DNA of 64,000 nt from Escherichia coli (GCA_025336685.1 GCA_025336685.1_4717.1); one strand, 5' to 3'. Shown: positions 21,137 through 51,010, counted from the first letter of the stretch. Program-made: numbers and translations. The notes: generated from the letters alone by a model not told the origin.

Positions 21137-21161
21137 TCACGTAAGTAATATAGCCGTGAAA
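21137..21161 (-). promoter_or_regulatory. conserved promoter-like motif (TATATTAC core), copy 1
   Basis: Plus strand TCACGTAAGTAATATAGCCGTGAAA, 49-73 nt upstream of the HD gene start. Confidence 0.5.
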
Positions 21162-21304
21162 GGATTTGTGTTGGTCCGTTTCGATGCCCATCGTATTTTA
21201 TGGATTGTCGAATGACGTCATTTTAAGGGACATCCCCGACCTCCTCCCCACACCTTTCCAGGGGAGGAGTTTTATCATACTTTTCTATTAATTCGAGCGC
21301 GATT

Positions 21305-23386
21305 ATGTTGGATAGAATCAATCGTTTAATGAACCGAATGACGGTTAAAAATCAGAGTAACAATACCGTGCATATCGGGGGTATCGATGCGTGGCGTCTT
21401 TCAGATGACATTCAGCGAATATGGGGTACCTCCCGATTTATGAAGCACATGTTTCGTAATTTTTCTTCTAGTGGGCTCAGTCTCCACAACTTTTACCTCC
21501 CCGATTTCGTTTATATTCTCGAAACGATCATCGAGGCAAAGAATACCCGTAGCAACAAACGCATGCTGAAACACCTTATCGAGATACTACTACAGGAAAC
21601 ATGGTTGCAAAATACCACCATCGAGCAGCCCGCAATCCTCGATAAAGCACGCATGAACAAAATGCTAACGCTCTCTCTGTTCGATTATCAAGATGAGTTC
21701 ATCGACATCTATAACCGTAACGTACCTAAATACCGACTGAAAGGATACGTGTGTGCGATGGGTGCAGGTGCCGGTAAAACGATCACAGCGCTGGCATTAA
21801 GCGCCGCAATGAACGTCGATGTATTTGTGGTCTGCTGTCCTAAGAACACCATGCGTTCAGCATGGCAATCCGATGTAAACAAAGCCATCGTTGATCCTGC
21901 AACAGAAACCGCGTTCTGGTCAGACACAATGCCACCATCACAGCTGCAGAAAAGCGATAAGTACTATTTTCTACATTACGAATCGATGGGCTTATTAAAC
22001 GATGTGATGATCAAGCATAAACGCACAGCGAAGCGCGTTCTTATTGTTGTTGACGAAAGCCATAACTTCAACGACAAGAACAGCCAACGTTCCCAGCGAC
22101 TGGTTGATCTTGTACAGACAATGCGTCAGACCATGAATGCGGATGTGCACGTCTTGTTTATGTCAGGTACCCCTGTTAAACAGATGGGTTCTGAGATGAT
22201 CCCATGTTTAGGTTGTATCGATCCGATGTTCCAAGGACAGGTGGTCGATAGCTTCAAAGCAATTTACGGTTTAACCAGCAGCCGTGCTAACGATATCCTC
22301 AGACATCGTCTTGGGTTCATGATGCATGTCGTACCTAAAGAGGCTTACCGTAAAACCCGTCCGGAAGTTCAGGATGTTTACGTGAAGCTTCCTAATGGTA
22401 GCGATTATACCATCTCGAGCATTCGTGACGACATGGCGATATTTGTACGCGATCGGGCGAAGTATTACAAGGATAACTGGGGACATTACCGAAAGATTTT
22501 TGATGATGCCTTGGACTACTATCGTAAGACTATTCGTACCGACGGAGAACGTAAAGAGCTATCTCGATACGAATCGATTGTTGCGCGTTTCCAGAAAGGT
22601 TACGATCCCGTCAGAGACAAAGACGATGCGATGTTCTGCAGCGCGTTTGAAAAACGTTCCATCATGCCAGTTCTTCCTTCTGATTTAAGGGTTGCTTTCA
22701 AAGACGCCAAGAGCGTCATCAAGTACGTTGGGTTGAAAATTCAGGGTGAAGCATTGGCCCGTGTTCTGGGCGCAGCGCGCATTCGGTGTCATGTCGACAT
22801 GGTGGAATACATCGACTTCGAAGGGTACATCAATAACGCCGAAGCCAAAGTGTTGATCTTCACGTCGTACGTTCAGGTGGTTGAACGCGTCGATAACATG
22901 CTTCGTGATGCGGGCTTCTTACCGGAACCCATTTACGGGAAGACCAACAAAAACATCAACCAAATACTTGCCCGTCTACGCGACGATCCTGACAGCGGTC
23001 CCGCTATCGCAACCTTTGATAGCTTAGCTGAAGGGGTTCCGATGCTGATGTGTAATGTGGGTCTCTTCTTGAACAACCCGTGGCGTTCATCCGATGAAAT
23101 CCAAGCCATCAGCCGTCTCGACCGTGTAGGGCAAACGCAACCTGTTCGGATTTATCGTTTCATGTTAGATACGGGAAGCGAGGGTAACGTTTCTACCCGT
23201 AGTCACGAAATCATGGAGTTAAGTCGACAGCTTGTTGAAGAAATCACGGGCGTCAAATATGTAGTGAACAAGCAAGATGATGTTAACTTGCAAGAAACGT
23301 TGGCGATGGAAGGATACGATCAATACGTTACCGTAAACGCCACGGAATACGATATTAAACCACGACCTGCGTTCTTGGAATGGTAA
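21305..23386 (+). CDS. SF2 (SNF2/DEAH-like) helicase
   Basis: Walker A MGAGAGKT, DEAH-like VVDESHNF. Confidence 0.7.
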   Translation: MLDRINRLMNRMTVKNQSNNTVHIGGIDAWRLSDDIQRIWGTSRFMKHMFRNFSSSGLSLHNFYLPDFVYILETIIEAKNTRSNKRMLKHLIEILLQETWLQNTTIEQPAILDKARMNKMLTLSLFDYQDEFIDIYNRNVPKYRLKGYVCAMGAGAGKTITALALSAAMNVDVFVVCCPKNTMRSAWQSDVNKAIVDPATETAFWSDTMPPSQLQKSDKYYFLHYESMGLLNDVMIKHKRTAKRVLIVVDESHNFNDKNSQRSQRLVDLVQTMRQTMNADVHVLFMSGTPVKQMGSEMIPCLGCIDPMFQGQVVDSFKAIYGLTSSRANDILRHRLGFMMHVVPKEAYRKTRPEVQDVYVKLPNGSDYTISSIRDDMAIFVRDRAKYYKDNWGHYRKIFDDALDYYRKTIRTDGERKELSRYESIVARFQKGYDPVRDKDDAMFCSAFEKRSIMPVLPSDLRVAFKDAKSVIKYVGLKIQGEALARVLGAARIRCHVDMVEYIDFEGYINNAEAKVLIFTSYVQVVERVDNMLRDAGFLPEPIYGKTNKNINQILARLRDDPDSGPAIATFDSLAEGVPMLMCNVGLFLNNPWRSSDEIQAISRLDRVGQTQPVRIYRFMLDTGSEGNVSTRSHEIMELSRQLVEEITGVKYVVNKQDDVNLQETLAMEGYDQYVTVNATEYDIKPRPAFLEW

Positions 23387-23392
23387 TTAAGA

Positions 23393-23418
23393 AGCTCTGT
23401 CTGATGTCAGACAGAGCT
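23393..23418 (+). terminator. hairpin AGCTCTGTCT-GATGTC-AGACAGAGCT followed by TTTATGCCG
   Basis: 10-bp perfect stem 6 nt after the helicase stop. Confidence 0.6.
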
Positions 23419-23485
23419 TTATGCCGTGTTTGTTACAAAATCGTATGGCGTATATGCGTTGTACTTATTAAATAGGACAGAATAC

Positions 23486-24937
23486 ATGAAACTCAAACAA
23501 AGCTGGAAAGACGAACTTCTTGCGTTAGTAAATAGCAAAAACAGTTTACAGCTGACATTAGCCGACGTAAAATTTGAACTAACTGAACCGGTAAGCGAAG
23601 TGCCCGGAACGGTTACTGTTACGATCAAACCGAACGATGATAGCCGTTACTTTAACGAGCAGTCTCTGACCTACATCCGTCGAGACATCGCTAAAAACTT
23701 CACCGGGATCCCGTTACGGGTTATCGTTAAAAATGATACTGCCGTAAAGGATATCATCAACACGATCGCTGAACGTTACGGATTGGTATTTGACACAACC
23801 GTCGACTTCCTCGAATCCGAGCTGAATAAACAAATTACGTTCGCAGACACCGGTATTAAAGACATCACGGTTCCGGTTGCAAACACGTCTTATGTTTGGG
23901 CTGGTAATCTTCAGTTCAACATTGCTAACGATACGTTAAGCTTGATTACGATCATCAAGCAAACCGATCTTACGAATCTGGTTTATCTGGATGGTGTTGA
24001 AGCTGATACAACGGGATCGTTACTATTAGCAACGACCTCGGTTATCGACGAAAACGGAAATACCGAAACAACTGAAGGTGTCCTTGACGCAGCGCACTTC
24101 CAGAATGTCCTGAACGTCATGGTTCGTTATGGTGATATTACCAACGAACAAATGCAACAAGCAATGCAGACAATTAACCAAAGCGAAGACGTTCGTAGAG
24201 TAGAGGTGAGATCATACGGTGACGCCGAATTACTGGTAACCACCAAGAAAGATTGGGCTATCGGCAGCCTTAAGGGTGCTATGGTTGTTGGACGCGCTTC
24301 ACCTAAACCGATCCAATACGTTCTTAAAACAAAAGGCGGCAGCATTATATTATCATTAGATGGTTGGACAAATGTTTCCATCGATTGGGGTGATGGGAAT
24401 AAGACGACGGAGGACTCAGTCGATAATGAATATCGGCACACCTATGCGGACACTACAGAACGTACGATCGTCGCTACGGGTACCCCTACCAACGTTGAAG
24501 ATACAGAGGTACAGCAAAGCTTCACCGGTGGTAACATCACTGAAATCGTTGACTGGAACAACGGATTACCTAAGGCCCCATCATTACCTGCGGCGAACAG
24601 TTTAACTAAGGTTCCTAATTATATCCCGGCATACTGGACATCGTTAGAAGGTATGTTTACACGATGCAGCGTTATTAACGACGTGAACATCACCAAATGG
24701 AACACCCGCAACATTACTTCAATGAAGGACCTCTTCTACGGTTGCGCTGCGTTCAACCAACCGATCGGTTCGTGGGATGTTTCGTCTGTTAAGAATATCG
24801 ACAATATGTTGTCTGGATGCTTCGCGTTCAATCAGGATCTGAGTGGTTGGACATTCCCGGCAGGCACTTCACACATCAACTACGACGGCATGACCGCCGT
24901 GTGGAGTACTGAACACAAACCACACTTCGCTGAGTAA
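23486..24937 (+). CDS. protein with C-terminal DUF285/BspA-like repeats
   Basis: Track start is further upstream; ATG 23486 (MKLKQSW) has AGGA RBS; C-terminus has repeats FNQPIGSWDVSSVKNIDNML / FNQDLSGW. Confidence 0.55.
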   Translation: MKLKQSWKDELLALVNSKNSLQLTLADVKFELTEPVSEVPGTVTVTIKPNDDSRYFNEQSLTYIRRDIAKNFTGIPLRVIVKNDTAVKDIINTIAERYGLVFDTTVDFLESELNKQITFADTGIKDITVPVANTSYVWAGNLQFNIANDTLSLITIIKQTDLTNLVYLDGVEADTTGSLLLATTSVIDENGNTETTEGVLDAAHFQNVLNVMVRYGDITNEQMQQAMQTINQSEDVRRVEVRSYGDAELLVTTKKDWAIGSLKGAMVVGRASPKPIQYVLKTKGGSIILSLDGWTNVSIDWGDGNKTTEDSVDNEYRHTYADTTERTIVATGTPTNVEDTEVQQSFTGGNITEIVDWNNGLPKAPSLPAANSLTKVPNYIPAYWTSLEGMFTRCSVINDVNITKWNTRNITSMKDLFYGCAAFNQPIGSWDVSSVKNIDNMLSGCFAFNQDLSGWTFPAGTSHINYDGMTAVWSTEHKPHFAE

Positions 24938-24956
24938 AAAAAAATAGTTAGCATAT

Positions 24957-24989
24957 CTTCCTCCCTACCCATAACGGGCGGGGAGGAAG
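24957..24989. terminator. hairpin CTTCCTCCC ... GGGAGGAAG between convergent genes
   Basis: 9-bp stem, followed by GTTTATG on the plus strand. Confidence 0.5.
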
Positions 24990-25006
24990 GTTTATGTGGC
25001 TATGAC

Positions 25007-25345
25007 TTAGAACCAGAGTTCTTTCATGAGGTAGGCTTCCATATCGTAGATAAGCCACTCGTCAGGAATTTCTAAAGGATCGTCTTCGGTTAAGGTCAGC
25101 ATGTGCAGGGCGAACGCACGCTTAATATCGTTCAGCAGTTTCTCGTCGTCGTAACCTTCGGGTAGTTTACGGTCTACCAGTTGGGTTTGTTTATAGACAG
25201 CACAGAACGCTTCAGGGCTATGTTTGTCCATCGGAAATTGTTCGGCGGCCTGGACCATCGTCAACGTCCAGCTTACAACATTGTAACGCTCACCGTTAAT
25301 TTCACTGAACTGATCATCGATTAAACAGATTTGTTGTACGTTCAT
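25007..25345 (-). CDS. hypothetical protein
   Basis: 112-aa ORF. Confidence 0.45.
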   Translation of the reverse strand: MNVQQICLIDDQFSEINGERYNVVSWTLTMVQAAEQFPMDKHSPEAFCAVYKQTQLVDRKLPEGYDDEKLLNDIKRAFALHMLTLTEDDPLEIPDEWLIYDMEAYLMKELWF

Positions 25346-26235
25346 TCATTTTCTCCATTCTTATCTTGGTCGCAATCGCACTCTTCGACGTCTTTCTTAC
25401 TTAAACGTAAGACACCAAGTGCGGCATGCTTGAGTTCTTGCAACGCGCTTTTCAGCTGACCTTCTTCATCGAAATCAAAATACTTCTCGTTGTAGCTTAA
25501 TGCTGGAATCATATTTACGAGAGGCTCGATGGCAGGCATCAACATTTCAATAACAACCTTAGGATCAACAAAGCGTTCAAACCCTTCAGGAAGTTTGCTT
25601 ACCACAACTTTATCGTTCTTGATGAAGAATTTGTTCTTGAACAAATCGTCAAGAATAGCGTTCTCTTCATCCGTACGTTTTGCGTGAGGACGATCGATCA
25701 TCTGCACAAACACATCACTCAACGCTTCAGGCAAGGTCGGATTTTCACGAAGAGAAGTTCCAGCCGGAATTTCAATATCGATCTTTGCCCACTCAACAAC
25801 CTGGTGATCTCGTGTGTAGATAACATCGACTTCCCATGCCAGGCCGTCCGGACTTTCTACGGTGTAGCGTGTTTTCGCCTGACCTTCCGGAGCCATACGC
25901 TCGATAGCATCAAACATCTCGACTGGAATTTCGACTTCGCTTTCCGTTGCATCGCCTGGACCACGATACACCTTCGTGGTCATGATGTATTTCGGTTCTT
26001 CGTTATCGATCTGTATAGCTCGTGCTCGTACTTGACCTTTCACACCACCAACGGCCGTGTTATCAAACAACCATTGATGTTGCACCATATGTTCGATTTT
26101 TGATGCTACTTGACGAAGACGCTCAACACCATCCTCAGCCAGTTTACCAAAGAAGACCAGCTCACGTTCCTGCTGTGTCTCACCACTTAACATCATTAAA
26201 TTGGCGATTTGTTTCACGCCTCTTACTTTTGACAT
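25342..26235 (-). CDS. hypothetical protein
   Basis: 297-aa ORF. Confidence 0.5.
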   Translation of the reverse strand: MSKVRGVKQIANLMMLSGETQQERELVFFGKLAEDGVERLRQVASKIEHMVQHQWLFDNTAVGGVKGQVRARAIQIDNEEPKYIMTTKVYRGPGDATESEVEIPVEMFDAIERMAPEGQAKTRYTVESPDGLAWEVDVIYTRDHQVVEWAKIDIEIPAGTSLRENPTLPEALSDVFVQMIDRPHAKRTDEENAILDDLFKNKFFIKNDKVVVSKLPEGFERFVDPKVVIEMLMPAIEPLVNMIPALSYNEKYFDFDEEGQLKSALQELKHAALGVLRLSKKDVEECDCDQDKNGENE

Positions 26236-26303
26236 ATATGCTCCGGTTGTAAGGGCCTGCTTCGAGGCCCTTCATTGATTTTTGATTCCACCAAACGCTA
26301 TCG

Positions 26304-27878
26304 TTACAATTCAAAATCTTCATCGATAACGCGCTGGGTAAGCACTTTGTCGCTGAAGAACTCCACCTTGCGCTGATGGTATTTACGATGCGCTTCGATA
26401 GAAGTACATACCAGATACCAGAAGGTTGGCGTCATTCCTTCAAACTTCCCTTTCAGCTGACGCAGTCGCCCCAACACCTGAATGTTACCGGTTCGTGACC
26501 CCATCGCTAACGTCATGAACGCCATCACCAAGTCAGGAAGGTCGATGCCCGTACCTGCCGATTTCACCGTCGTAACGCTAATATCGTTATCCAACAAGAC
26601 CATGAAATCTTCTTCAGCCGTATAAGGACCGATCTCTAACTCAGGAATACGTTCACTGAGATAATGCGACAACGACTTACACATATCAACGGTTGCACAA
26701 TACACCAGCATCTTCATACCTTCCTGATACTGGTTCATGAAACCTTTGATGATAACCGTATAGATAAAGTTGAAATACGCGAGTTTGAGCTGCTTGTTCT
26801 TCATGATAGACTGTTCGAATATCGTGTGAGAATAAGAACCCCCAAACCCTTTGTATCTGACTTTATCTGTACTACGTAGTCGATACGTCACGGCATTTAC
26901 CGCAATGTATTTCTTGTATTCGCCTTTCGCATAACGGGCTTCTTTCGGATACATCAAATACAACATCCGCTCGATGAACGGATCATCGGACACCGCCGTT
27001 GCTGACAGATAGATGATTTCCGGAATACTAGCGTAACACTTGACCTTAAACAAGAAATGCAATGCTTCATGGCACTCGTCATGAATCAGAAGGCCTATGC
27101 CGGTCTTTTCCCAAAACTCAGCGGGATGAAAGGCATACGGCGCAACGCAGTTATTCTTCTCGTAGTCCGCAATATAACGTTGGAACATGTTCAAGGAGAA
27201 CAATGCGATTTTGAAGTCGAGTTCACCTTGTTCAACCAAGGTTTGAAACTCCAACATACTGTAACGAGGAATGTCGGGATGCGGTGGATCCTCCTTAGCG
27301 TTCCCGCGTATCTCGATAACGTCCCCTGGTTCCATCCCGAAGAAGTTCAGCAGTGAGCTTCGCCAACCTGGCATGTATCTCGGCGACAGAATGATACCCG
27401 TCCGTACACCGCGTCGGAAGGTAATCTCCTGCGACATGGCCGTTTTTCCCGACCCTGTTTGAGCGGTGTTTAGACTCATTCTGAAGGGGGTATCCTTACC
27501 CCCATTCATGTACTCCAACCATTCTTGCTGATCTTCACGCCATGGGAACTTCCATTTCTTTACGAACTCCACTTCTTTACCTGGTGCCGGATCGTGATAA
27601 ACGATTTCCAACCACTCTTTTCGTATCCCTCGGGAAAAGATAAAATCCAAAAACGATTTCAACTGTTCGCGGAGTAAGTATACCTCGCTATAATCGCTTC
27701 TCGCTGCGGCATACGTGTTTATGGTATCGGTAACCATTCTCCGTGTACGAGGGTCGCGCCGTTTCCTCAGATGCAAACAACGGTCTCGAAGGTAATGGCC
27801 GATAAGATGGGCAAATCGAAGTCCGTATCCGCTCAGCTTCATGCCATGCGAGAAGACGTCGATACGAGCTAACTTCAT
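26304..27878 (-). CDS. SF2 DExH-box helicase
   Basis: Walker A TGSGKT, motif II LIHDECHE; ATGA overlap with upstream stop. Confidence 0.7.
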   Translation of the reverse strand: MKLARIDVFSHGMKLSGYGLRFAHLIGHYLRDRCLHLRKRRDPRTRRMVTDTINTYAAARSDYSEVYLLREQLKSFLDFIFSRGIRKEWLEIVYHDPAPGKEVEFVKKWKFPWREDQQEWLEYMNGGKDTPFRMSLNTAQTGSGKTAMSQEITFRRGVRTGIILSPRYMPGWRSSLLNFFGMEPGDVIEIRGNAKEDPPHPDIPRYSMLEFQTLVEQGELDFKIALFSLNMFQRYIADYEKNNCVAPYAFHPAEFWEKTGIGLLIHDECHEALHFLFKVKCYASIPEIIYLSATAVSDDPFIERMLYLMYPKEARYAKGEYKKYIAVNAVTYRLRSTDKVRYKGFGGSYSHTIFEQSIMKNKQLKLAYFNFIYTVIIKGFMNQYQEGMKMLVYCATVDMCKSLSHYLSERIPELEIGPYTAEEDFMVLLDNDISVTTVKSAGTGIDLPDLVMAFMTLAMGSRTGNIQVLGRLRQLKGKFEGMTPTFWYLVCTSIEAHRKYHQRKVEFFSDKVLTQRVIDEDFEL

Positions 27879-29881
27879 AACGTGAATACATCCTCCGGTT
27901 TAGGTTCTTTGCGCGGTAAAAGCATGTAGTCGATCGGATGATCCGGCTTCATGGTTGGGATATAACTGTTCGGGTTTTGGAACGCATCCAGCTGCTCTTG
28001 GTGAGCGAACTTCATACTCAAGGAGCGCATGTTCATGTTCTTCTTGAAGGTACTGAAGTATCGTGTTGTTCCCTGTTTCGGCATGCGATAATCTTTCGTG
28101 TGTGGTGAACGAATCATGCTAGCGTAGAGAATAACATCGAGATGCGAAAGGTTCATTCGCAGACGCTGGGCACACAGGCGATGCCAATAGTACAGCACGT
28201 TTGCAACTTCTTCCGGTGTAGCTTCGTCTTCCGAGAGGAATCCGGCACTGAAAGAACCTTTCCCGAATTTGAACTCACGTTCGATTTCTTTTGCGTACTC
28301 CATCATGTTTTTGTGGATTAACGGCATCTGGAATAACGTACGTGAATTGTCCCAGTGTTTCAAGTCGAAAATCACAATCCCGTCAGACGTCACTTCCCAG
28401 CTATGGCGTTTAAGATAACGGATAAACGCTTTACTCGGTACAACAGGACGTCCGCAGAAATCGAAATTGACTTTGAGCTTACGATAGCTTTCATCTTTCC
28501 TGTCGTAAATCTCCATATCGCAAAGCGTCATGTTAAACAGACGCTGTGGTATCAGCGAACTGATTTCTTCCGCTTCAGCTACATCGTACAACATGTTCGC
28601 AAGACCTAACTTCATCTTAATCAACACGTGTTTACCTTTCAGCTCACGTGCGAGTTTGATGTCGTTCATGTTCTGGCTGTAGCGAAGGATATGTTGATAT
28701 TCCGGTGGGATTGGTGCTGTGGATACCGTTGACGAACCATCGTGGTGTTTGGTAGAAAGAATGTTCTGCGTTACCTGTTGCGAGCAGGTACGTGCTGCAC
28801 CATCACCGACATTATCAGTCAATGCGAAGTTATGGCTCAATTCACCATAACACGTCGTGCATACCCCAGCAGGATCGGGATGATGACAATAGTTAACGGA
28901 GCGCATGCGTACCGTCGTGCCGATCAATTCTTTCATGTGTGGTTGTATCGCTACCAACGAACCGTCATCACGAATAATGAATCGACCGTGGAAGCCGCGT
29001 AGGTCGGTCTCATCACGGATTGGCATCGGGATGGCCTCTCTACTACCACAATCACCAGGATGTAGTCGTTGCACAACCGCTGTCGCTATCTGAAGTTCGC
29101 GACCGAAATATTCGGACTTTTTAATCTGCTCTTTGTTGAACAGCAGCGATTTCGCCGCAGAACGACTTTCTTTCAAGCTGTCAGGAAGAGAGATCAAACC
29201 GGCTGCATACGACCGCATTACCGGATCGCGGAATATCTCGGAGTTAATATCGGTCAAGAATCCACGCATCCCAATACACTGTAGCACCTGCCCAATCGAA
29301 ACGTGTTCGGTTCTTACCGCACGTGCGATAGGGTTTGCATGTAACGTTTTATCGGTGCTCAGTACCTTTGTCAATTTCTTGTATGCGCTTTCGATACCTT
29401 CGCGGGTGGGTTCCGCTTCAGCGATGATTTTCTTAACTTCAGGGTGTACAGTAATCTGATAAAAATCGTCCGCACAAATAGTTGTTACGTATTCCTCCAA
29501 CGCATACGTAAAGAAGTTATACACATTGTTAAACATATCGAACAATGCTTTCCAGAGAACCTCACGATTCTCTTGTGGGTAAGCATACATGCATTGACGA
29601 TACGCTGCGCTTTGCAACGCAACCGACGAACCAGCAGTAAACTTGCGTTTATCCACCAGGTTCTCTTTTGTCAATGGTGTCTCAGGATACATGCGATGCA
29701 CAGACCAGTGCATGTAACTAAAGAAAATGCGTCGTGCGCGCAATTCATGAACGCCATCGTCCATCTCGATATATACACGGTCGTTAGGCTGTGCCCACTC
29801 GAATACCTCATCAACCGGCCAGTGCATAAGCTCGCGTGCCCTCACACGACGTTTCGTGGTGGTCGTCTGTGTTGTAGTCAT
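27875..29881 (-). CDS. multisubunit RNA polymerase beta-prime-like subunit, C-terminal module
   Basis: CTTCYGELSHNFALTDNVGDGAARTCSQQVTQNILSTKHHDGSS parallels bacterial beta-prime CxxCYG...GxAIGxIAAQSIGEPGTQLTMRTFHxGG. Confidence 0.65.
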   Translation of the reverse strand: MTTTQTTTTKRRVRARELMHWPVDEVFEWAQPNDRVYIEMDDGVHELRARRIFFSYMHWSVHRMYPETPLTKENLVDKRKFTAGSSVALQSAAYRQCMYAYPQENREVLWKALFDMFNNVYNFFTYALEEYVTTICADDFYQITVHPEVKKIIAEAEPTREGIESAYKKLTKVLSTDKTLHANPIARAVRTEHVSIGQVLQCIGMRGFLTDINSEIFRDPVMRSYAAGLISLPDSLKESRSAAKSLLFNKEQIKKSEYFGRELQIATAVVQRLHPGDCGSREAIPMPIRDETDLRGFHGRFIIRDDGSLVAIQPHMKELIGTTVRMRSVNYCHHPDPAGVCTTCYGELSHNFALTDNVGDGAARTCSQQVTQNILSTKHHDGSSTVSTAPIPPEYQHILRYSQNMNDIKLARELKGKHVLIKMKLGLANMLYDVAEAEEISSLIPQRLFNMTLCDMEIYDRKDESYRKLKVNFDFCGRPVVPSKAFIRYLKRHSWEVTSDGIVIFDLKHWDNSRTLFQMPLIHKNMMEYAKEIEREFKFGKGSFSAGFLSEDEATPEEVANVLYYWHRLCAQRLRMNLSHLDVILYASMIRSPHTKDYRMPKQGTTRYFSTFKKNMNMRSLSMKFAHQEQLDAFQNPNSYIPTMKPDHPIDYMLLPRKEPKPEDVFTL

Positions 29882-30026
29882 TATTGCTTTCCGATTTAAA
29901 TGGTTTTATCATACGGTTTACCAAATCCGTTGGACTTTACTATCGTTGTGATAGCATCGGGAATCCCTTCCCTTAGGTTATGTAGGTGTTAATATATCTC
30001 CACTGCTGTCGTAAAGGTCAGCAGCA

Positions 30027-30656: not shown

Positions 30657-30669
30657 TTAGTCATGTTTA

Positions 30670-31416: not shown

Positions 31417-31495
31417 ACCAGGGATCCTCTTTTTAAGTCTTCACATTCTAGTGTTAAGCAGTTAAAATAAACCGTCCCTTTAATCAGCATAAACA

Positions 31496-31525
31496 TCCTC
31501 CTCCCACCACATGGGTAGGAGGAGG
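31496..31525 (-). terminator. hairpin CCTCCTCC ... GGAGGAGG followed by AUGUUUAUGCUG
   Basis: 8-bp stem; a GTAATATA word sits between the upstream stop and the hairpin. Confidence 0.4.
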
Positions 31526-31536
31526 CGTAATATACA

Positions 31537-31947
31537 TCAGAAAGGAGGACGATCTTTAAATTCTAGCAACGTGTCTTCGAAGCAAGCGATGAGTTCAGAC
31601 TGCAATTCTGTTCGGCCTTGTTCACCGAAAAGTTCCAGCAACATTAACCCCCGAGCGGTCTTCGTAGCAACCTCTTCGCAGATACAGAGATTGTGGACTT
31701 CATCATCGTCAACATCTTTACGTAACTGTGCCGCAATGGGCTTAAGATTGCCGTTTTCATCGTATTCGTCACGAAATGCATCATAAGCCGCATCGATGTT
31801 CGCTATCCGTGTCAATCCTTCAGAATCCCGCCAGTCTCGATATAATCCAAGCAGACGGTTATGATTCTTCGTTTTGATGTTCGGTGCCGGAAGGTTGCGT
31901 AACAGATGTGGTGTAATCCTTGCTATAACGCTATCCGAATGGTCCAT
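31537..31947 (-). CDS. hypothetical acidic protein
   Basis: 136-aa ORF. Confidence 0.45.
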   Translation of the reverse strand: MDHSDSVIARITPHLLRNLPAPNIKTKNHNRLLGLYRDWRDSEGLTRIANIDAAYDAFRDEYDENGNLKPIAAQLRKDVDDDEVHNLCICEEVATKTARGLMLLELFGEQGRTELQSELIACFEDTLLEFKDRPPF

Positions 31948-37501: not shown

Positions 37502-39088
37502 TTATTTTTTTCCTCTTAAATTTACTACATGTTCATTTAATCGAACAACTAATTGCACAAGCTGCTGACGGATATCTGCTGGGCAAAGCATCAATCCTTT
37601 ACGATCAGCTGGGACTTTCTCAAGGATTTCCGGACCTGCTGCGGAAACATCCCAATCCCATTCACAAAACGCATCAGCCACCATGTTAATACCGACAACC
37701 GGTAAAGTTGTACGTTCATCTTCATACATGGCATGCGGATACAATTTATTGACGGTAATGACCTCCTGTGGTTTTAACTGATGGATAATCTGGTAAACGT
37801 CGTCGCGTTTAACCTGGATACCTACGGTCAGCGCAGCCAGTTGAGGAAAACCCCAATGGTCTAATAAGCACGCTGCGATTGCTAACGCTTTTGCCTGATG
37901 TACGGCTTCAATCGGTGATAGACTTCTCGCTGGAAGATGACTATCAAGCAACCATTGTGCCAATGCTCGGCATCCACGGTTGATTGGTTTTAACTCAATG
38001 CTGTCATCATGTTTAGCGTAGGTGTATCCGTCGTAACGTTTTGCGATACGCGCATACATGTCTTCAACTTTACCGTAAGGTGCTGTTTCGTCGACGTCAT
38101 GCAACACCCGTTCCATCTGGGTAAGATACGCGATATCAAGGATGAGTACGCGTGGTGAACGTTTATCTTTCACCATCAACGCATCAATCACGCCTTGACT
38201 GTCTTCATCTTGCGCATTCCCTCGCGGCGTTTTCTCGCGAATCGGTCCGCTGAAACGTCGTTCCGTACAAAGGTTATTCACATAGCTAAAGATCAACGTT
38301 ACCAGGTGCGTACAACTCACCAACACTCCATCTTTAACGACAGGCTGTACGGCTTGGTCCAAATCGCGTACTGCGAGACGGCGAACGATGGCTTGTGAAC
38401 GCAACCAACCAGGTACTTTCTCTGTCGACATGTAATCCACCGTCATCGACAGCGTGATCTTTTTATCGCCTGTCTGTGCACGGATATAATCTTCCAGTCG
38501 GTCGTAAGCAGCGATATCATGAATGCGTGTTTTATACATCAACGACATAGCCACTTCTTCTTTACGTACCGTCCCGTACGTTTTCCCTGCGTCAATCAGA
38601 AACTCCGCCCAAATCGGCACCATCAGCCGGACGTAGATCGCTAACGCCGTTAACTCAACGTAATCGTTTCGTAAATAGGTTTTCTCAGGTATGTCATCCT
38701 CACCTAATGTTGTTTTCATGTCTGGCGGTAATTTTACCCAACCTGGGGTATTACACAACGCCAGAATCTCTTCATAGACGATCGGTTTGTAAATTTCACC
38801 GACGGCGCGGCTCAACTCCTCCATTTGTTGCTGTGGAGCAATGTAGTTATCCATCGCTTCACGTGCTTTAACGAACCCTTCGAAGATGTCGTCGATTCGA
38901 CGTGGGTTCTTTTGTTCTATCCAAGCGAGATACTTATTAATCTCTCGCATCTGATTGCTAGCCATATCCCCATCAATCTTGATGTAGCCTTGGCCTGAAA
39001 ATTCCACGGCACGTCCGTCACGATGTTTGATGAGATAGTGATCCAGCTTTTCTTTGCCTTGCGTCGTAATGACGGGCACAATGTGCAT
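37502..39088 (-). CDS. hypothetical 528-aa protein
   Basis: Long ORF preceded by a 240-nt structured leader with promoter-like motif. Confidence 0.5.
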   Translation of the reverse strand: MHIVPVITTQGKEKLDHYLIKHRDGRAVEFSGQGYIKIDGDMASNQMREINKYLAWIEQKNPRRIDDIFEGFVKAREAMDNYIAPQQQMEELSRAVGEIYKPIVYEEILALCNTPGWVKLPPDMKTTLGEDDIPEKTYLRNDYVELTALAIYVRLMVPIWAEFLIDAGKTYGTVRKEEVAMSLMYKTRIHDIAAYDRLEDYIRAQTGDKKITLSMTVDYMSTEKVPGWLRSQAIVRRLAVRDLDQAVQPVVKDGVLVSCTHLVTLIFSYVNNLCTERRFSGPIREKTPRGNAQDEDSQGVIDALMVKDKRSPRVLILDIAYLTQMERVLHDVDETAPYGKVEDMYARIAKRYDGYTYAKHDDSIELKPINRGCRALAQWLLDSHLPARSLSPIEAVHQAKALAIAACLLDHWGFPQLAALTVGIQVKRDDVYQIIHQLKPQEVITVNKLYPHAMYEDERTTLPVVGINMVADAFCEWDWDVSAAGPEILEKVPADRKGLMLCPADIRQQLVQLVVRLNEHVVNLRGKK

Positions 39089-39180: not shown

Positions 39181-39202
39181 GAGGTAATATAAGCGTGAAT
39201 AA
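39181..39202 (-). promoter_or_regulatory. conserved promoter-like motif (TATATTAC core), copy 2
   Basis: Plus strand GAGGTAATATAAGCGTGAATAA, ~95 nt upstream of start 39088; overlaps hairpin CCTCTATGA/TCATAGAGG. Confidence 0.45.
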
Positions 39203-39330: not shown

Positions 39331-40119
39331 TTAGAACGCTAAGCCATCAAAGGCTACAGACGGATCATCGTCGTCATTTGCGCTTGGTGCATCCCAACGG
39401 GTATCAGGGGCAGCTGGGGCCGAACGTGATGCGTTAGAGTTACCGTTGTACTGGCCGTTACCAGCATTACGGTTACCGCCGCCGTTATTATTGTTGCGAT
39501 TATAGCTGTTGTTGCCATTACTTACGCTACGGCTCTCACCATCGAAATTGGTTGCGAGGATGCTTGGCAACACAGCACGATGGATGCGTACGAATTCCAA
39601 TGCACAAAGCGGAGAAACAACCCCGATCTGCAACGGTTGCCCAGACTCATCAACCAGAGAGTGGAAACGTGGTGGTTTGAATACGAACTGGATGTTTGGT
39701 TTCTGGTATGCTGTTACAGCGATGTATACCGAACCATCATCATTCTTACCAACCCATGTTGTACTTTCGGTAATCTGTTTCTTCTTACCTGGGTTATTGC
39801 GATCATCAATAACCTTTTCGTTCTTCATCGCAAAGCGTTGACCTGGTTTACCCTTAGCAACCTGCTCAAGGATCGCAAGCAGGTTGTAGAACGCGTATGA
39901 ACTCATGCGTGCCCAAATGCTTTCAGCGCGACCCTGCTGGTCTTTACGACCTGTATAAACCGTGATACGCGGTTGATTCTTAGCAACGCTAATTTTCAGT
40001 GAGGGGACCGAATTGCCACCCTCAACTTTTTCGTCCGCCCACAGTTTCCAGTTGTTGTCGTCGTAAGCCGTAGGAATAATGTTTCCTTGTGGTTTACTAC
40101 CCGAATTCCAATTGCTCAT
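39331..40119 (-). CDS. possible ssDNA-binding protein
   Basis: Globular N-terminal ~190 aa, N/G-rich linker (NGNNSYNRNNNNGGGNRNAGNGQYNGNSN), acidic C-terminal tip DDDDPSVAFDGLAF resembling an SSB tail. Confidence 0.4.
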   Translation of the reverse strand: MSNWNSGSKPQGNIIPTAYDDNNWKLWADEKVEGGNSVPSLKISVAKNQPRITVYTGRKDQQGRAESIWARMSSYAFYNLLAILEQVAKGKPGQRFAMKNEKVIDDRNNPGKKKQITESTTWVGKNDDGSVYIAVTAYQKPNIQFVFKPPRFHSLVDESGQPLQIGVVSPLCALEFVRIHRAVLPSILATNFDGESRSVSNGNNSYNRNNNNGGGNRNAGNGQYNGNSNASRSAPAAPDTRWDAPSANDDDDPSVAFDGLAF

Positions 40120-43322: not shown

Positions 43323-43335
43323 GAGGAACTCCTCT

Positions 43336-43785: not shown

Positions 43786-43866
43786 TCTGTTCTCCCCAAG
43801 CTTTTCATTTCATAGAGTGGTGGAAATTCGTAGAAAGTTACAAAAATAAAAAGAATGGGTAGTCCC

Positions 43867-43887
43867 TCCCCACCCGAAGGTAGGGAG
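43867..43887 (-). terminator. hairpin CTCCCCACC-CGAA-GGTAGGGAG followed on the minus strand by a U-rich run
   Basis: 9-bp stem with one mismatch; UUCUUUUUAUUUUUG follows. Confidence 0.5.
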
Positions 43888-43902
43888 AGACCACAGATGT
43901 AT

Positions 43903-44367
43903 TTAAACCAATGCTGCGATAACGTCGTTAACATTACGACCACGCAACTCTGCCGCCAAACGAATAACTTCATCCAGGGAACGGTTTGTACGAATCTTAG
44001 CTACTTTCCAATTTTCAGGATACTGTTCGAAGTTAAGTAACCAAGTCATTACCTTTGCTTGTTCCACACCGTTGAGTTTGATTGTCGTGCGTGGATTGGC
44101 TTTGAACCACTTCTTGCTCAGCTGTGCCATACGGCGAACAGGGTAAGCGTAAGCGCGAGTCCAATCTTTGGACAGATTGTCGAGTAACTCACGGTAGCTG
44201 CTATCGTAGTCTTTGTTGATACGACGTAATAACCAGTTGGCGGTCATCTGATAGAGTTTATCATCTTCGCGTAACCGCATCCCTGCTACTGCTAAATAAA
44301 CGATAAGACCTGCACCCATGATGAGAGACAGGATAAACAGAACTTGGGTTTCTTGTGCTAAAGTCAT
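43903..44367 (-). CDS. membrane-anchored protein (N-terminal TM helix)
   Basis: VLFILSLIMGAGLIVYLAVAG hydrophobic segment; promoter-like motif upstream. Confidence 0.45.
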   Translation of the reverse strand: MTLAQETQVLFILSLIMGAGLIVYLAVAGMRLREDDKLYQMTANWLLRRINKDYDSSYRELLDNLSKDWTRAYAYPVRRMAQLSKKWFKANPRTTIKLNGVEQAKVMTWLLNFEQYPENWKVAKIRTNRSLDEVIRLAAELRGRNVNDVIAALV

Positions 44368-44452
44368 TTTACTATCCTCGGATTTCGTTAGGATTTGATT
44401 TCCAATATAAGGACAATGTGATATGCCTTATACAGTCGATTGATGTTGTACA

Positions 44453-44479
44453 TCACTTAAGTAATATAGCCGTGAAAAA
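44453..44479 (-). promoter_or_regulatory. conserved promoter-like motif (TATATTAC core), copy 3
   Basis: Plus strand TCACTTAAGTAATATAGCCGTGAAAAA, ~90 nt upstream of start 44367. Confidence 0.5.
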
Positions 44480-44486
44480 TGTTGGA

Positions 44487-45284: not shown

Positions 45285-45325
45285 GATTGTCCTCGTTTTC
45301 AATTTAAGATTACATGCAGCATAAA

Positions 45326-45350
45326 CCCTCCCCGCATAAGGCAGGGAGGG
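45326..45350 (-). terminator. hairpin CCCTCCC ... GGGAGGG followed by UUUAUGCUG
   Basis: 7-bp stem. Confidence 0.45.
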
Positions 45351-45365
45351 TAGCCATTGAATAGA

Positions 45366-46004: not shown

Positions 46005-46019
46005 TACAGGCGTCCTCCT

Positions 46020-46257
46020 TTAGCAATGGTTGTTAGTTGCTTCTATTTCATCAAGATACGGTTCTACGTCATCGCCCTCCACGAATTCGTTGAACCAACA
46101 GTCAATGGTAGAAATAACCGGTGACTGGTGTTCACATTTCTTAGATACCTTAAAAGGCACGTTATTATCCATCATACCGAGTTCGGGTCGAAAACGCCCG
46201 AAATGTTTCGCAGTCCAAATGTCTGGGACGATATGGTTGTTCATCGCGTCCCCATCG
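46020..46257 (-). CDS. RNA polymerase beta-prime-like N-terminal subunit, exon 2
   Basis: Starts with codons for DGDAMNNHIVPDIW, the continuation of NADF|DGD; ends at stop 46020. Confidence 0.75.
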
Positions 46258-47669
46258 CTTCAGTTTAATTTGGTCGAACGTATTCCAATTTCAATCCATG
46301 CCAATCACCGCCTTTACTAATAGCGGTACTTATCGTAGTCGGATGCACTTTATGTTCTTCAGCAAGGGCGAATCTATCAGGATAGACTTTATGTGTACCA
46401 TCCTCAAACACCACCTTTACTGGGAACCTTTGTAATCCACCAGTTTTTGGTCTAGGCTCTTTAGGAATATATTTACATTCGTTCACATCGCCAGGATAAT
46501 TCCTTGTCCACCATGCTTTCCAACCGTTTCTGGAAAACATCTTATCTCCATGACATAAGCTATGACTTAATGTCGCATAGCTCACTCCCACCATTGTTGC
46601 CGCCATTACGGTACTTTCCATGTGATACTTGTCTCCATCGGGCGATATTAAAACCAACCCGCCGTAAATAACATACGACTTACCGGCATCTTCGGATGTG
46701 AAACCGACAAATTCCATTCCGTGGGTAGCCGCATCGTAATATTTCATCAACGGCCATTGTCGTGTAGTACGGAACCATTTTGAAATCTGGGTGTGTGGGA
46801 TACCGTAACACTTAGCCGCATCGCGCATACTGTAATGTTCGGTTATCTCGCCAGTTCTCAAATCCTTTATCCATACTGTTTTAGCTTTCCAGTTCAAGCC
46901 CGTACGATAGGCATGGTACGTATTTTGGGATTGACTCGTCCATTCAAGATTATCCAAGCGGTTGTTATCTTTAACTCCGTCAAGATGGTTACCTACTAAC
47001 ATTGATCCCTCAGGCAGCATAGGTTTTTCACGAAAGGTGGATAAAACAACATGATGAGCTGCTATATCTCTACCTTCATGTCTGACCCTTACATATCCTA
47101 ATACGTTAGTTTTTCCTACTTCCTCTCCAGTATAGGCATCTATAATGACACCCTCCACAGAAGCGGCAAGTCCGGGATAATCTTTACAATGGTAAAATCC
47201 TGGGAATTTTGTCTCTCTAAGTTTCATCTTCTCTCCGCTATCGGCCAACAGAGAGAAAACGTTCCTCGGAGGCCGACGTTTTCAAATTAAACTACGTTAT
47301 CGACTATATCTTCATCCTCATTGCGAGGAGTCTCCCGTTTGGGTCTGTGTTTAACAGAGCCTACTCTACTCGACATCGCGTCTTTCGATAGTCTGTGAGC
47401 ACACATCTTAACGAACATTCGTGGACTCCTAAACAGGTGAACATTCTTGTTAAGATGCTTCGCTGCGGGTTATTCCCGTCCTACCTCTTTTACCATACCC
47501 AGTTCATTACGCTGGCCCTCATCTATGTCGCCACGATGAGTTGGTGTGTAGTCCGATTACAGAAACTTCCCGTCAATTAGAGAGTTTTAACTATGTTCCT
47601 GTTACCAGAAACCCGACTCCGATGATATCAATAAATCAACGTAAGTTATTGATTTAATTGAAGAAACTG
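46258..47669 (-). other. group I intron (1412 nt) in the RNAP beta-prime-like gene
   Basis: 5' splice after U (GCCGACUU|CAG); candidate IGS GAGUCGG pairs with exon CCGACUU including a U.G wobble; P AAUUGACGGGAAG, Q AAUAACCCGCAGC, R GCUCACAGACUAUCGAAAG, S GAAGAUAUAGUCGA all in the first ~400 nt; 3' end ...CUGAAG with terminal G. Confidence 0.8.
46265..47227 (-). CDS. HNH homing endonuclease encoded in the 3' part of the intron
   Basis: HHVVLSTFREKPMLPEGSMLVGNHLDGVKDNNRLDNLEW (HNH core); track start 47248 is TTG, ATG 47227 has GGAGAG RBS. Confidence 0.8.
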   Translation of the reverse strand: MKLRETKFPGFYHCKDYPGLAASVEGVIIDAYTGEEVGKTNVLGYVRVRHEGRDIAAHHVVLSTFREKPMLPEGSMLVGNHLDGVKDNNRLDNLEWTSQSQNTYHAYRTGLNWKAKTVWIKDLRTGEITEHYSMRDAAKCYGIPHTQISKWFRTTRQWPLMKYYDAATHGMEFVGFTSEDAGKSYVIYGGLVLISPDGDKYHMESTVMAATMVGVSYATLSHSLCHGDKMFSRNGWKAWWTRNYPGDVNECKYIPKEPRPKTGGLQRFPVKVVFEDGTHKVYPDRFALAEEHKVHPTTISTAISKGGDWHGLKLEYVRPN

Positions 47670-48925
47670 AAGTCGGCATTGTATCCCTTAAGGATCATCA
47701 CGCTTAACCCGATGGTGTTATCCTGCGGATCGCGTTTAACCTTGGTGATTTCAAGACATTGGTTACTGCTTCGGTCAAGTGATGGGTTTCGAACAAAACC
47801 ACACACAATCCCATCGAACGGTGTATCGGCAATAAGCTCATCGTGTAGCTCGCTCATCATCGGGTGGTAATTACGGACATGTTCCGCAACGAACGCACGT
47901 GCTGCTCTTGGTGAATAACCACGATGGAATAACTTGGATTGGATGTGTTCTTTATTGGTTAATGTAAATGGCGCGTATGGGAAATGCAGATGATAATAAC
48001 GATGGTTCGCTGTTATCGAACTGATTACGGTACGCGTGGTGAATGGGTGTAATGTACCTAATATGTTTTTACGCGTGATACCTTTCTTCTTACCGATGAA
48101 CTCATCGAAAATCGCCGAGTGGTACTGCAGCAGCTTCAGTTGTACTTTCGCCATCCAGTTTTCTTTCTTTCTGGCGCTCAAAGGTGTTGTTGGGTGATAG
48201 ATACTATTCAATGTGCCGATAGCATCGATCGCACCTTCCATTTTGCTATCTGCATAACGGCCGGTCGGTGTATTTTCGATAACGAACATCATGGCCGCAG
48301 GAAAGCTGATATACTGGCTGAAGAACTTATCACGATGGATACGGATGAATTCTCGTAGCGTGTCAACTTTCTCTGTGTTCTTCGGTCCACGTAACGTAGG
48401 TCCTTTATACAAGATCTCCATGATGCGATCGAAGTTCTGTATAAAGCTATTTACGCCACGTCGTATCCCGAATACATCGAATTGCTGCTCCAGATAGTTC
48501 TTGAGTTCGATGGGTCGTTTTACATTTGGACGGTAACTGGCATCAATGAGCCACGTCATCGTTTCGAAGCTTTTGATATTCAACTCGCTTGCCAGCACGA
48601 GATGGACCAACGGGTTAATGAACGCATCGATTCCTTCAGGGACACGCGCCCAGACCGTCGAACGAATCTCCTGTTCTGCTGGGTAGGTCACAACCGTTTT
48701 ACAGTTTGGACACACCGTGCCGAGCAGCTCACCACGATTGTAAAAACCGCATCCACATTGCGGTGTGATATCCAACGTATCGCTGGAGTAAACACGGGTG
48801 ATAAAACTGTTTAATTTCTTCTTCTCTTCGACGACTTTTGTATCGTAATCGTTCAACAAAATCGGCGTAAAGGGAAGTTCTGCGAGCTGTCTATCGAAAC
48901 TCACGATATCGAGCATGATGGCCAT
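47670..48925 (-). CDS. RNA polymerase beta-prime-like N-terminal subunit, exon 1
   Basis: Zinc-ribbon CGCGFYNRGELLGTVCPNCK; C-terminal ...IGLSVMILKGYNADF parallels bacterial ...LHPLVCAAYNADF; the ORF reads through into the intron as SFFN-stop. Confidence 0.8.
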
Positions 48926-48967
48926 GGGACATCTCCTACAAATGAAAAAGAACGTTAGGACGTATAA

Positions 48968-48991
48968 GGGAGGGAGGTTGCCCTCCCTCCC
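48968..48991 (-). terminator. hairpin GGGAGGGAGG-TTGC-CCTCCCTCCC upstream of the beta-prime-like gene
   Basis: 10-bp perfect stem. Confidence 0.5.
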
Positions 48992-49017
48992 GTCAGATTA
49001 CATCGAACGTTCTTCCA

Positions 49018-50913
49018 TTAGAACAGGTTGAATGCCCCACCCATGTTGTTACCGCCAACATTCGGACGATCGCTACGTGCATAGATGTTGCCGGAGATGT
49101 TACCCAGACCACGAGCACGTGCTGCTGTGTTACCACGAACAGCGGTACCTGCCAGATGCTGGATGTTCTCAGGACGGATGGTGAAGCCAGCTTCGGCAGC
49201 CGCTTCAATCAATGCCGCAAGCGCATTCGGTTCGAAATCGTAACGCATTGCCCAACCGGTTTGTTCCCAGCTACCAGACAGAACGCGATCGATGATTTCG
49301 TGACGAGCAACAACACGCTGAGACATCGACATATCGGTACGGTCGAAGCTGTCTTCCCAAGCTTCTACGGTATCCGGGTTAGTGATGTTCATCATGTACA
49401 GATCGTCCATATCACGAATATCGTGACGGTGGCCATCCTGGTGGTTGTAGTGACCCAGCGGGATACGGTTACCGGTAGCGTACACTAACGGCTGGCCGTA
49501 TTGATATTTCTTGCTGAAGCAACCCAGGGTGGTATCATCGAATGCACGATAGAGTGCTTTATAGCCTTCGGAGATTTCTTGAACTTTACCGTCAACGTTG
49601 CCCGTAAAGATCTTCTCAGCTGCAGGGATCATACGCAGCAACCAGCTATATTCACCTTCTTCCGGTACATCGATAGAAATCAGCAGAGACGGATACAGTA
49701 CCTGTTGCAGGAACTTGTAAATCTGCTCGTTGGTTTGAGTAGACAGATCCAGCGGTGCGGTAACTTCCGGATCCAGTACCATTGCCAGAGCACCCGGGTT
49801 ATGAGGACCGATGCCACGAGCAGCGTTGCTGATTAAAGACTGTGCCCACGCCATACCGCTGTTCAGCGTAGCGATGGTACCAATCAGACCTAACACGAAA
49901 GTGTTCGGAGTGAACGCATCCAGCTCCAGCGGGTAAGCGCTGGTCATCACGTAACGCGGCTGGTATTGTACAGTCGGCGGTACCGGATAACCGTTAACCA
50001 GAACAGGACCTTGGTTGAAGGTCGGGTTCTGCGGGCTGTAGGTCAGGTCAATGTAACCAGTGGTTGCGACCAGGCGCTGTTGACTATCGTAATCGCTCAT
50101 CGCTTGACGGATACGGTTAGAGATAGTTACAGTGATGTCAGAACGTACTGGGTTACCGACGATATCGCTGTCCTGCATACCGCTGGTGTTGTACTGAACG
50201 CTGCTGATCGGCTGATCGCTTGCCATCATGCCCAGGTTGAACTGCGGCAGGCCCAGTTTATCGCCGAGACGGATTTCGATCGCGGTTTGGATTGCGTTAT
50301 CTGCAGCAGACAACAGGGTGGTTGCCAGATGTGCAGATTCAGCGGTGATTTCATTGGTCACCACAGCCAGACCGGCGATACGAACAGTACCATTAGCCTT
50401 ACCACCAATAGCCGCATACATTGCCGCCATGACTTCGTTGATGAACGTGCCGTTCAGGTTATCAACCCAGGTACGTGGTACCAGAATGTTACCATGCGGA
50501 CCTTGTTCTTCACGACGCGGCAGCGGAGCCAAACCGGCAACCAGCGGAAGCACATAACCGAAGAAGTGGTTATGGTCACCAACTTTTGCACCGCTCATAA
50601 CAACCAGGGTCGGATACGGTACACTGTACTGGTTAGGATCGACGGTCACCATGATGAAGTCGTCTTTGAATCCTTTATCTTCCAGTTCTTTTTCCATCAG
50701 ACGGCGGAGATTCAGTACCTGCTCGGAGCCAGTATTACGGCTAATACGACGGCTCAGTGTACGGTTGATCGTACGCATCGTATGAGTTACTTTAGGCTGG
50801 CCAGCAAAATCTGCAGCGGTTTCCAGCGCCTCATCAGCACGTTGTGCGGTGCGGGTTTCAGCTGCACGAATTTCTACATTATCGTTACCGTTATTACGTA
50901 CGTCTAAGCCCAT
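49018..50913 (-). CDS. 631-aa protein, candidate nuclear-shell protein (chimallin-like); function inferred only from size, promoter and position
   Basis: Long ORF with AGAGGAA RBS, promoter-like motif upstream, immediately upstream of the beta-prime-like gene; I recall a similar arrangement in phiKZ. Confidence 0.45.
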   Translation of the reverse strand: MGLDVRNNGNDNVEIRAAETRTAQRADEALETAADFAGQPKVTHTMRTINRTLSRRISRNTGSEQVLNLRRLMEKELEDKGFKDDFIMVTVDPNQYSVPYPTLVVMSGAKVGDHNHFFGYVLPLVAGLAPLPRREEQGPHGNILVPRTWVDNLNGTFINEVMAAMYAAIGGKANGTVRIAGLAVVTNEITAESAHLATTLLSAADNAIQTAIEIRLGDKLGLPQFNLGMMASDQPISSVQYNTSGMQDSDIVGNPVRSDITVTISNRIRQAMSDYDSQQRLVATTGYIDLTYSPQNPTFNQGPVLVNGYPVPPTVQYQPRYVMTSAYPLELDAFTPNTFVLGLIGTIATLNSGMAWAQSLISNAARGIGPHNPGALAMVLDPEVTAPLDLSTQTNEQIYKFLQQVLYPSLLISIDVPEEGEYSWLLRMIPAAEKIFTGNVDGKVQEISEGYKALYRAFDDTTLGCFSKKYQYGQPLVYATGNRIPLGHYNHQDGHRHDIRDMDDLYMMNITNPDTVEAWEDSFDRTDMSMSQRVVARHEIIDRVLSGSWEQTGWAMRYDFEPNALAALIEAAAEAGFTIRPENIQHLAGTAVRGNTAARARGLGNISGNIYARSDRPNVGGNNMGGAFNLF

Positions 50914-50976
50914 TTGGGATTCCTCTTTTCTTAACCTTTATTAAATGACGTCATTGAATCAGCTTCTACTCGCTCA

Positions 50977-51010
50977 TTCACCTAGGTAATATAACCCTGA
51001 AATTTTTTTC
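50977..51010 (-). promoter_or_regulatory. conserved promoter-like motif (TATATTAC core), copy 4
   Basis: Plus strand TTCACCTAGGTAATATAACCCTGAAATTTTTTTC, ~65-95 nt upstream of start 50913. Confidence 0.5.

Follow-up and report, generated by a model that had tools for sequence, protein, structure and literature searches.

The stretch of Escherichia coli DNA analyzed here (GCA_025336685.1; 64,000 nucleotides, referred to as the window) carries four minus-strand genes that are each preceded by a copy of a conserved promoter-like element. The gene behind the fourth copy is a 631-amino acid (aa) open reading frame (ORF) that encodes chimallin (Pfam PF25677) and shares 96.7% identity with the Escherichia phage Goslar nuclear shell protein. 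The window aligned with the 123.5-186.2 kb region of Goslar at 88-96% nucleotide identity, mostly 92-96%, with a few unmatched stretches, and with a 237,533-bp contig in IMG/VR at 96.6-98.7% identity over the stretches compared. Because the window aligns to Goslar and the chimallins are nearly identical, we assign its source, by sequence, to a Goslar-like, nucleus-forming jumbo phage of E. coli within the Chimalliviridae.

The four copies, designated P1 to P4, are listed in Table 1 together with related features. The first-pass annotation had listed four sites as read on the plus strand, and all of them were found with exact coordinates and sequences. The genes it had named downstream also hold: an HD-domain gene (PF01966), a gene for a 528-aa protein (phrog_3209), a gene for a 154-aa membrane protein and the chimallin gene. 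From P1 to P4, the edge of the motif precedes the start codon (ATG at 21088, 39088, 44367 and 50913) by 49, 88, 86 and 65 nt, respectively. P2 is located directly downstream of a homologue of ChmC (gp176; 39331..40119), and the protein encoded after P3 has one N-terminal hydrophobic segment in its hydropathy profile.

Table 1. Early-promoter candidates and associated features in the window. Starts (+1) and 5' untranslated regions (5'UTRs) are predicted.
Feature	Position (nt)	Strand	Core	Short-matrix score (bits)	Predicted +1 (G)	Predicted 5'UTR (nt)	Adjacent gene or remark	Counterpart in Goslar
P1	21137..21177	-	TATATTAC, 21152..21145	38.1	21138	50	upstream of HD-domain gene, 20402..21088	142785-142810, identical
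P2	39176..39216	-	TATATTAC, 39191..39184	26.7	39177	89	upstream of 528-aa gene, 37502..39088 (Goslar gp175 homologue)	160776-160801
P3	44453..44493	-	TATATTAC, 44468..44461	37.9	44454	87	upstream of 154-aa gene, 43903..44367	166054-166079
P4	50978..51018	-	TATATTAC, 50993..50986	37.2	50979	66	upstream of chimallin/chmA, 49018..50913	identical
Weak candidate fifth promoter	29969..30009	-	TACATAAC, 29984..29977	15.7	29970		88 nt upstream of RNA polymerase beta-subunit gene, 27875..29881 (phrog_3015)	151619-151644, identical
38-nt insertion in P2	39150..39187	-					placement ambiguous by 6 nt owing to a TTACCT direct repeat	absent
Terminator-type hairpin	48962..48991	-					GGGAGGGAGGG-CAAC-CTCCCTCCC, then TTATAC; just past the chimallin stop codon	
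Hairpin-TTATGC element	11262-11290	-						
Hairpin-TTATGC element	19308-19333	-						
Hairpin-TTATGC element	31497-31525	-					TTATGC at ~31485-31492	
Hairpin-TTATGC element	45319-45351	-						
Hairpin-TTATGC element	48962-48991	-					same hairpin as the terminator-type hairpin above	
Hairpin-TTATGC element	58406-58435	-						
Hairpin-TTATGC elements		-					upstream of ORFs 656..940, 12545..12844 and 52329..54482	
Hairpin-TTATGC element	23393-23424	+						

The core octamer TATATTAC, read on the coding strand, is invariant at all four sites. On the plus strand it appears as GTAATATA, of which the window has five copies in a single orientation (at 21145, 31527, 39184, 44461 and 50986). This count is not significant for the bare octamer, as 2.37 matches are expected and 8 of 100 shuffled sequences reach five. 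When the 20-mer TARGTAATATARCCSTGAAA was searched with up to three mismatches, exactly the four sites were returned where 0.01 is expected, and none of 100 shuffles reached four.

We then aligned the four sites in register on the predicted start. Mean pairwise identity was 0.23 at -100..-41, 0.43 at -40..-24, 0.76 at -23..-15, 1.00 at -14..-7, 0.67 at -6..+1 and 0.25 beyond +2. Since identity is at background outside -40..+2, the motif is compact, and the same drop rules out a duplicated segment or a duplicated gene end as the source of the similarity. The motif had been described as about 25 bp long; its conservation was borne out, but the element is somewhat wider, about 40 bp. It consists of an A-rich tract at -40..-24 (AATCCAAnA or ATTGAAAAAAA), TTTCA at -23..-19, a 4-nt spacer (sGGy), TATATTAC at -14..-7, five nucleotides (yTAnG) and finally T(-1)G(+1)A. 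The fixed TTTCA-N4-core spacing gives the window sites a T-rich element upstream of about -19.

The fifth octamer copy, at 31527..31534 on the minus strand, had been listed as a degenerate member of the set, and we rejected it. Only the 8-mer is shared: TTTCA and the TG start are absent, the flanks do not match, and the site falls below threshold in both matrix scans and fails every other scan. It is placed between the stop codon of an ORF (31537..31947) and a terminator hairpin (31525..31497) and is a chance match next to that terminator. Searches of the window for further degenerate copies with the long matrix, the short matrix and mismatches allowed yielded none beyond the weak candidate at 29969-30009. 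This site scores 20.5 bits with the long matrix, lacks TTTCA and has a G instead of a T at -1.

The whole-genome motif scan that had been proposed was run on Goslar, using a position matrix over the complete genome with 20 whole-genome permutations as background (best permuted score 16.1 bits). It returned 12 strong and 2 weak copies, with 12 sites above 45 bits followed by sites at 31.7 and 20.5 bits and then none above 10 bits; a shorter matrix (-24..+2) gave the same list. Each of the 14 is a minus-strand site that precedes a co-oriented gene by 24-204 nt. Thirteen are intergenic by the RefSeq annotation (P ~ 8e-14 given 8% non-coding DNA), and the fourteenth falls within an annotated 62-aa ORF. 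The seventh base after the core is a G at all 14 Goslar sites as well as at the four window sites, and the base before it is a T in 13 of the 14. When 7-mers were counted without bias across 142 upstream regions of Goslar, ATATTAC ranked first (11 versus 0.84 expected) and TATATTA second (9 versus 0.55). Comparison of the 14-site list with the annotation revealed no copy ahead of the major head, tail sheath or terminase genes of Goslar. The core is TATATTAC at 8 of the 14 sites, TACATTAC at 5 and TACATAAC at 1. The TACATTAC copies (Goslar 15053, 43252, 49718, 86691 and 187625) form a subclass found only outside the region homologous to the window, which may be compared with the consensus CCTACATTATY of phage EL (PMC7058600). 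One of them is the copy inside the 62-aa ORF, gp047, which may be a mis-annotation.

The core contains TATATT, one position off the TATAAT hexamer of host promoters, and TTAATC or TTGAAA is found some 13-16 nt upstream, which would allow the sites to be read as sigma-70 promoters with TATATT as the -10 hexamer. A consensus scan for -35 and -10 hexamers 16-18 nt apart made no minus-strand call at any of the four sites, and sigma-70 hits were no more numerous than in shuffled sequence (14 versus 21.2, and 25 versus 21.1). A sigma-70 promoter also leaves the conserved CAsGGy of the spacer and the yTAnGTGA after the core unaccounted for. Moreover, infection by phiKZ-type phages is reported to be independent of host RNA polymerase (RNAP), and injected Goslar DNA resides with the virion RNA polymerase (vRNAP) in a vesicle. 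We therefore consider host promoters extremely improbable.

The element has close counterparts among published early promoters of jumbo phages. The first-pass annotation had suggested a resemblance to the phiKZ early-promoter core, and this was correct: the predicted phiKZ early promoter is tabulated as TATATTAC (PMC7058600), with Ceyssens et al. 2014 cited as its origin in PMC7598289, PMC8244752 and PMC7058600. The wider conservation that it had pointed out fits the extended consensi published for 201phi2-1 (TTAWTAVAA_HYWTTTRARR_BTATATTACDWHDGTG), N1M2 (TBYAWWWWWTTTCARRYAKATATTATYWAAGTGWA) and OBP, which is similar to N1M2 (PMC7058600). The early promoters of these three phages are themselves bioinformatic predictions, with about 31 sites per genome (Table 2, PMC7058600). 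At the level of sequence, the window motif fits the phiKZ, 201phi2-1, N1M2 and OBP entries position for position. Every RNAP-encoding jumbo phage is said to have such a motif upstream of its early operons, and the motif has been assigned to the virion polymerase (PMC7598289). Its reported center is at about -10, with a T-rich part farther upstream, beyond -19, and the primary transcription start site (TSS) of PHIKZ054 carries it (PMC8244752). In phiKZ and phiR1-37 transcription starts 6 nt beyond the consensus, and the AR9 promoter takes the form ...TATTAT-(6N)-G+1 (PMC5312081). Applying this 6-nt rule places the predicted +1 at the conserved G in each window site, including the weak one.

To this we can add the region upstream of chimallin, which we read directly in six distant genera (phiKZ, RAY, Eowyn, RSL2, PhiPA3 and Noxifer). 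The architecture TTTnA-N4-TATATTAC-N5-TG is found in all six, as aatgaaaaaaatttgagattTATATTACtaaattGaatc in phiKZ, caaaaaaattacaagtcTATATTACgtatgtG in RAY, TATATTACttaggtGa in Eowyn, aaatttcattgaTATATTACaaagttGa in RSL2 and variants of TATATCAC in PhiPA3 and Noxifer, even though these chimallins are only about 22-24% identical to that of the window (about 24% over the aligned part for phiKZ). P4 and the promoter of phiKZ gp54 (chimallin) have the same base at 31 of 43 positions, and for each a leader of 66 nt is predicted. A promoter this similar in front of proteins with about 24% identity suggests that promoter recognition by the vRNAP is among the most conserved features of the family. Within the first 50 kb of phiKZ we found eight exact TATATTAC-N5-TG sites, the chimallin site included, all co-oriented with a gene and all with the TTTnA-N4 spacing; read directly, they are TTTAA or TTTGA followed by N4 and the core. 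A scan of IMG/VR with the 25-nt degenerate motif matched only three Goslar-like contigs, Goslar itself among them, and hence added no evolutionary depth at that stringency.

These comparisons also bear on two other explanations. The sites could serve the non-virion polymerase, as promoters of the middle or continuous class, or both polymerases, and not be strictly early vRNAP promoters. The phiKZ chimallin gene does have both an early and a middle start, and most Goslar genes detected at 5 min remain detectable all through infection. However, middle promoters of phiKZ have a weak TACT/AT-rich signal around -22 to -24 and late ones have TATG at the start, neither of which resembles the element, whereas the early consensus agrees with it in core, spacing and start. 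In addition, the weak candidate precedes an RNAP beta-subunit gene, and genes for subunits of the non-virion polymerase need to be transcribed before that enzyme exists. On balance this assignment is unlikely. Still less probable is that the motif binds a phage regulator, either a repressor for early shut-off or an activator, and overlaps a promoter that went unrecognized. Both the information content of the sites (~37-55 bits) and their 40-bp extent do exceed the needs of a bacterial RNAP promoter, and the way in which the vRNAP recognizes promoters is unknown, with no sigma homologue known (2026 review). Nevertheless, we judge an operator of this type very unlikely, given that the motif is asymmetric and points towards the downstream gene in 14 of 14 cases, that its best-conserved block sits relative to mapped starts as does the experimentally defined early element of phiKZ and AR9, and that the architecture persists across genera whose proteins have diverged to the extent described above.

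We conclude that a Goslar-like jumbo phage very probably uses the four sites as early promoters, read by its virion RNA polymerase. The sequence shows the motif, its statistics, where it falls across the genome and an architecture identical to that of phiKZ-family sites; recognition by the vRNAP (by homology), the exact +1 and the early timing are inferred. Virion polymerase co-injected with the DNA would initiate at the four sites inside the early infection vesicle, and transcription would start at the conserved G to give leaders of 50-89 nt. Genes under their control would be the chimallin gene, the HD-domain gene at the head of a long run of small genes, the homologue of gp175 and the gene for the small membrane protein; the hairpin just past chimallin would close the predicted P4 transcription unit. 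Goslar virions contain five vRNAP subunits (gp78, gp196, gp205, gp207 and gp210), the Goslar vRNAP colocalises with the injected DNA in the vesicle, and Goslar chmA is expressed from this vesicle at 5 min, its transcription reaching a normal level when nucleus formation is blocked. These observations fit initiation by the vRNAP in the early vesicle. The downstream genes include members of the early programme, namely chimallin after P4, in the same position as in the six other genera, and the RNAP beta subunit after the weak candidate.

Several points weigh against this conclusion. The window carries RNAP beta-type genes but does not contain those of the vRNAP, and in Goslar the genes for the vRNAP subunits fall outside the region homologous to it. 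The predicted +1 was transferred from phiKZ and AR9. In the legend of Extended Data Fig. 4 of PMC10541120, 'TSS sequences' of Goslar chmA are displayed from 91 nt before the ATG, and if 91 nt were the true chmA start, transcription would begin 25 nt upstream of the predicted +1, inside the A-tract. A neighboring gene is given the same number and its whole intergenic gap is 92 nt, and for this reason we read the figure, with some uncertainty, as a display window and not as a mapped start. The number of sites is also low, 12-14 per 237 kb compared with 28-32 in phiKZ and with the 175 of 249 Goslar genes detected at 5 min, which implies either very long early operons with terminator read-through or other early promoters. 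Finally, the close relatives are all more than 90% identical, and conservation among them does not discriminate. The comparison of the window with Goslar is uninformative in this respect, as whole intergenic regions are 91-99% identical; just downstream of the identical P1 the 5'UTR is divergent, with an 8-nt indel.

The promoter of the gp175 homologue, P2, differs from its Goslar orthologue by a 38-nt insertion. The insertion point falls exactly within the core (TATA^TTACCT), and the inserted sequence restores the core and brings a new TG start with it. The insertion holds a 9-bp hairpin (CCTCTATGA-N6-TCATAGAGG) with a DNA folding energy of -7.5 kcal/mol (z = -3.1). It is present in the nearest IMG/VR relative, 3300011560_000001. 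A homologous 38-nt element with compensatory changes in the stem occupies the same position in the Goslar gp200 promoter (~226,643-226,680). Every Goslar-like genome examined has this element at the gp200 promoter; at the gp175 promoter it is polymorphic. It may serve as a regulatory cassette, or it may have arisen by recombination or as a small mobile element. A more ambitious, and in our view improbable, proposal is that the whole early programme runs from about a dozen high-information vRNAP promoters and that the 38-nt hairpin cassette is a transferable promoter-proximal module that tunes or gates vRNAP initiation, for instance by acting as an operator in early shut-off or by offering the polymerase a DNA hairpin to use.

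A GC-rich hairpin followed immediately by (T)TTATGC(C/T)G recurs across the window (Table 1), and TTTATGC is enriched in Goslar upstream regions (9 versus 1.24). We considered these elements as a second promoter class and rejected this, as they match the published intrinsic-terminator motif of phiKZ, BCCYCCCCHWWDGGGRRGGBYTTATKYYGT, a hairpin followed by TTAT (PMC10914365). Their tail includes TATG, the start motif of phiKZ late promoters, and they might also act as restart sites. At least four such terminators lie inside the block of about 45 small minus-strand genes at window 1-21088 (Goslar 113.8-142.8 kb), where P1, at the head of the block, is the sole consensus early promoter; in Goslar the next copy after P1 is 29 kb downstream. 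This layout suggests very long early operons, terminator read-through or a further promoter class. Four stretches in this early small-gene block (6165-6519, 7139-7531, 9095-10230 and 13894-14607) had no blastn match to Goslar at E<=1e-20, so the two phages differ in gene content there. A hairpin at ~21240-21268, in the divergent intergenic region upstream of P1, has kept its stem relative to Goslar (CTCCTCCCC/GGGGAGGAG), and its loop reads as the reverse complement of its Goslar counterpart (TGGAAAGGTGT versus ACACCTTTCC), as if inverted.

Beside the chimallin gene, the 3' end of the ORF for RNA polymerase beta' contains a group I intron (Rfam RF00028, 50.3 bits; 47281-47660, minus strand), which is followed by a 327-aa HNH_3 endonuclease ORF (46265-47248, minus strand). 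The segment 46247-47296, which encloses the HNH_3 ORF, gave no long match when compared by blastn (E<=1e-20) with the corresponding part of Goslar. Similarity between that part of Goslar and one related IMG/VR contig is only weak (71% over 352 nt). The endonuclease therefore looks highly diverged or replaced.

In the Goslar literature searched we found no account of this early-promoter set. The word 'promoter' is absent from the RNA-seq paper, and in the other papers checked it appears only in an unrelated method, a reference title and general review text; the Goslar GenBank record annotates terminators and no promoters. Promoter recognition by the sigma-less vRNAP of nucleus-forming jumbo phages is still unsolved according to a 2026 review. 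Goslar-like phages infect E. coli and are tractable, and their promoter set is apparently small and sharply defined. The site list provides ready substrates for biochemical and structural work on the vRNAP, predicted starts with which existing Goslar RNA-seq data can be re-read, and a means to delimit early operons. Its value is practical, and it leaves current understanding unchanged.

By every sequence-level criterion tested, the element belongs with the early promoters of the phiKZ family. It shares with the phiKZ early promoters the 8-nt core, the TTTnA-N4 spacing, the N5-TG at the predicted start, co-orientation with genes and a copy upstream of chimallin. The Goslar-like sites differ from those of phiKZ in a spacer that contains G+C (CAsGGy, where phiKZ has aacag or agat) and in the near-invariant yTAnGTGA after the core. 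Goslar also has the TACATTAC subclass, outside the region homologous to the window, and 12-14 copies versus the 28-32 reported for phiKZ. The 201phi2-1 (TTTRARR_BTATATTACDWHDGTG) and N1M2 (WWWWWTTTCARRYAKATATTATYWAAGTGWA) promoters have in common with it an A/T tract, TTTCA or TTTRA, a 4-nt spacer, the core and the GTG, but OBP and N1M2 carry ATATTAT in place of TATATTAC.

More distant systems share less. The AR9 early promoter, AAATATATATTAT-(6N)-G(+1), likewise has an AT-rich core near -10 and a conserved G start 6 nt later, and is used without new protein synthesis, presumably by the virion RNAP (PMC5312081). AR9, however, is not a chimallivirus and has a uracil-containing genome, and its 41 sites have a longer AT-rich core and lack TTTCA. 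Sigma-70 promoters resemble the element in the AT-rich, hexamer-like block near -10 but differ in that the element has no -35 hexamer at 16-18 nt and is conserved without a break from -23 to +2. This type of early promoter is already known from phiKZ and its relatives, and the Goslar-like set is another case of it that will not surprise a specialist.

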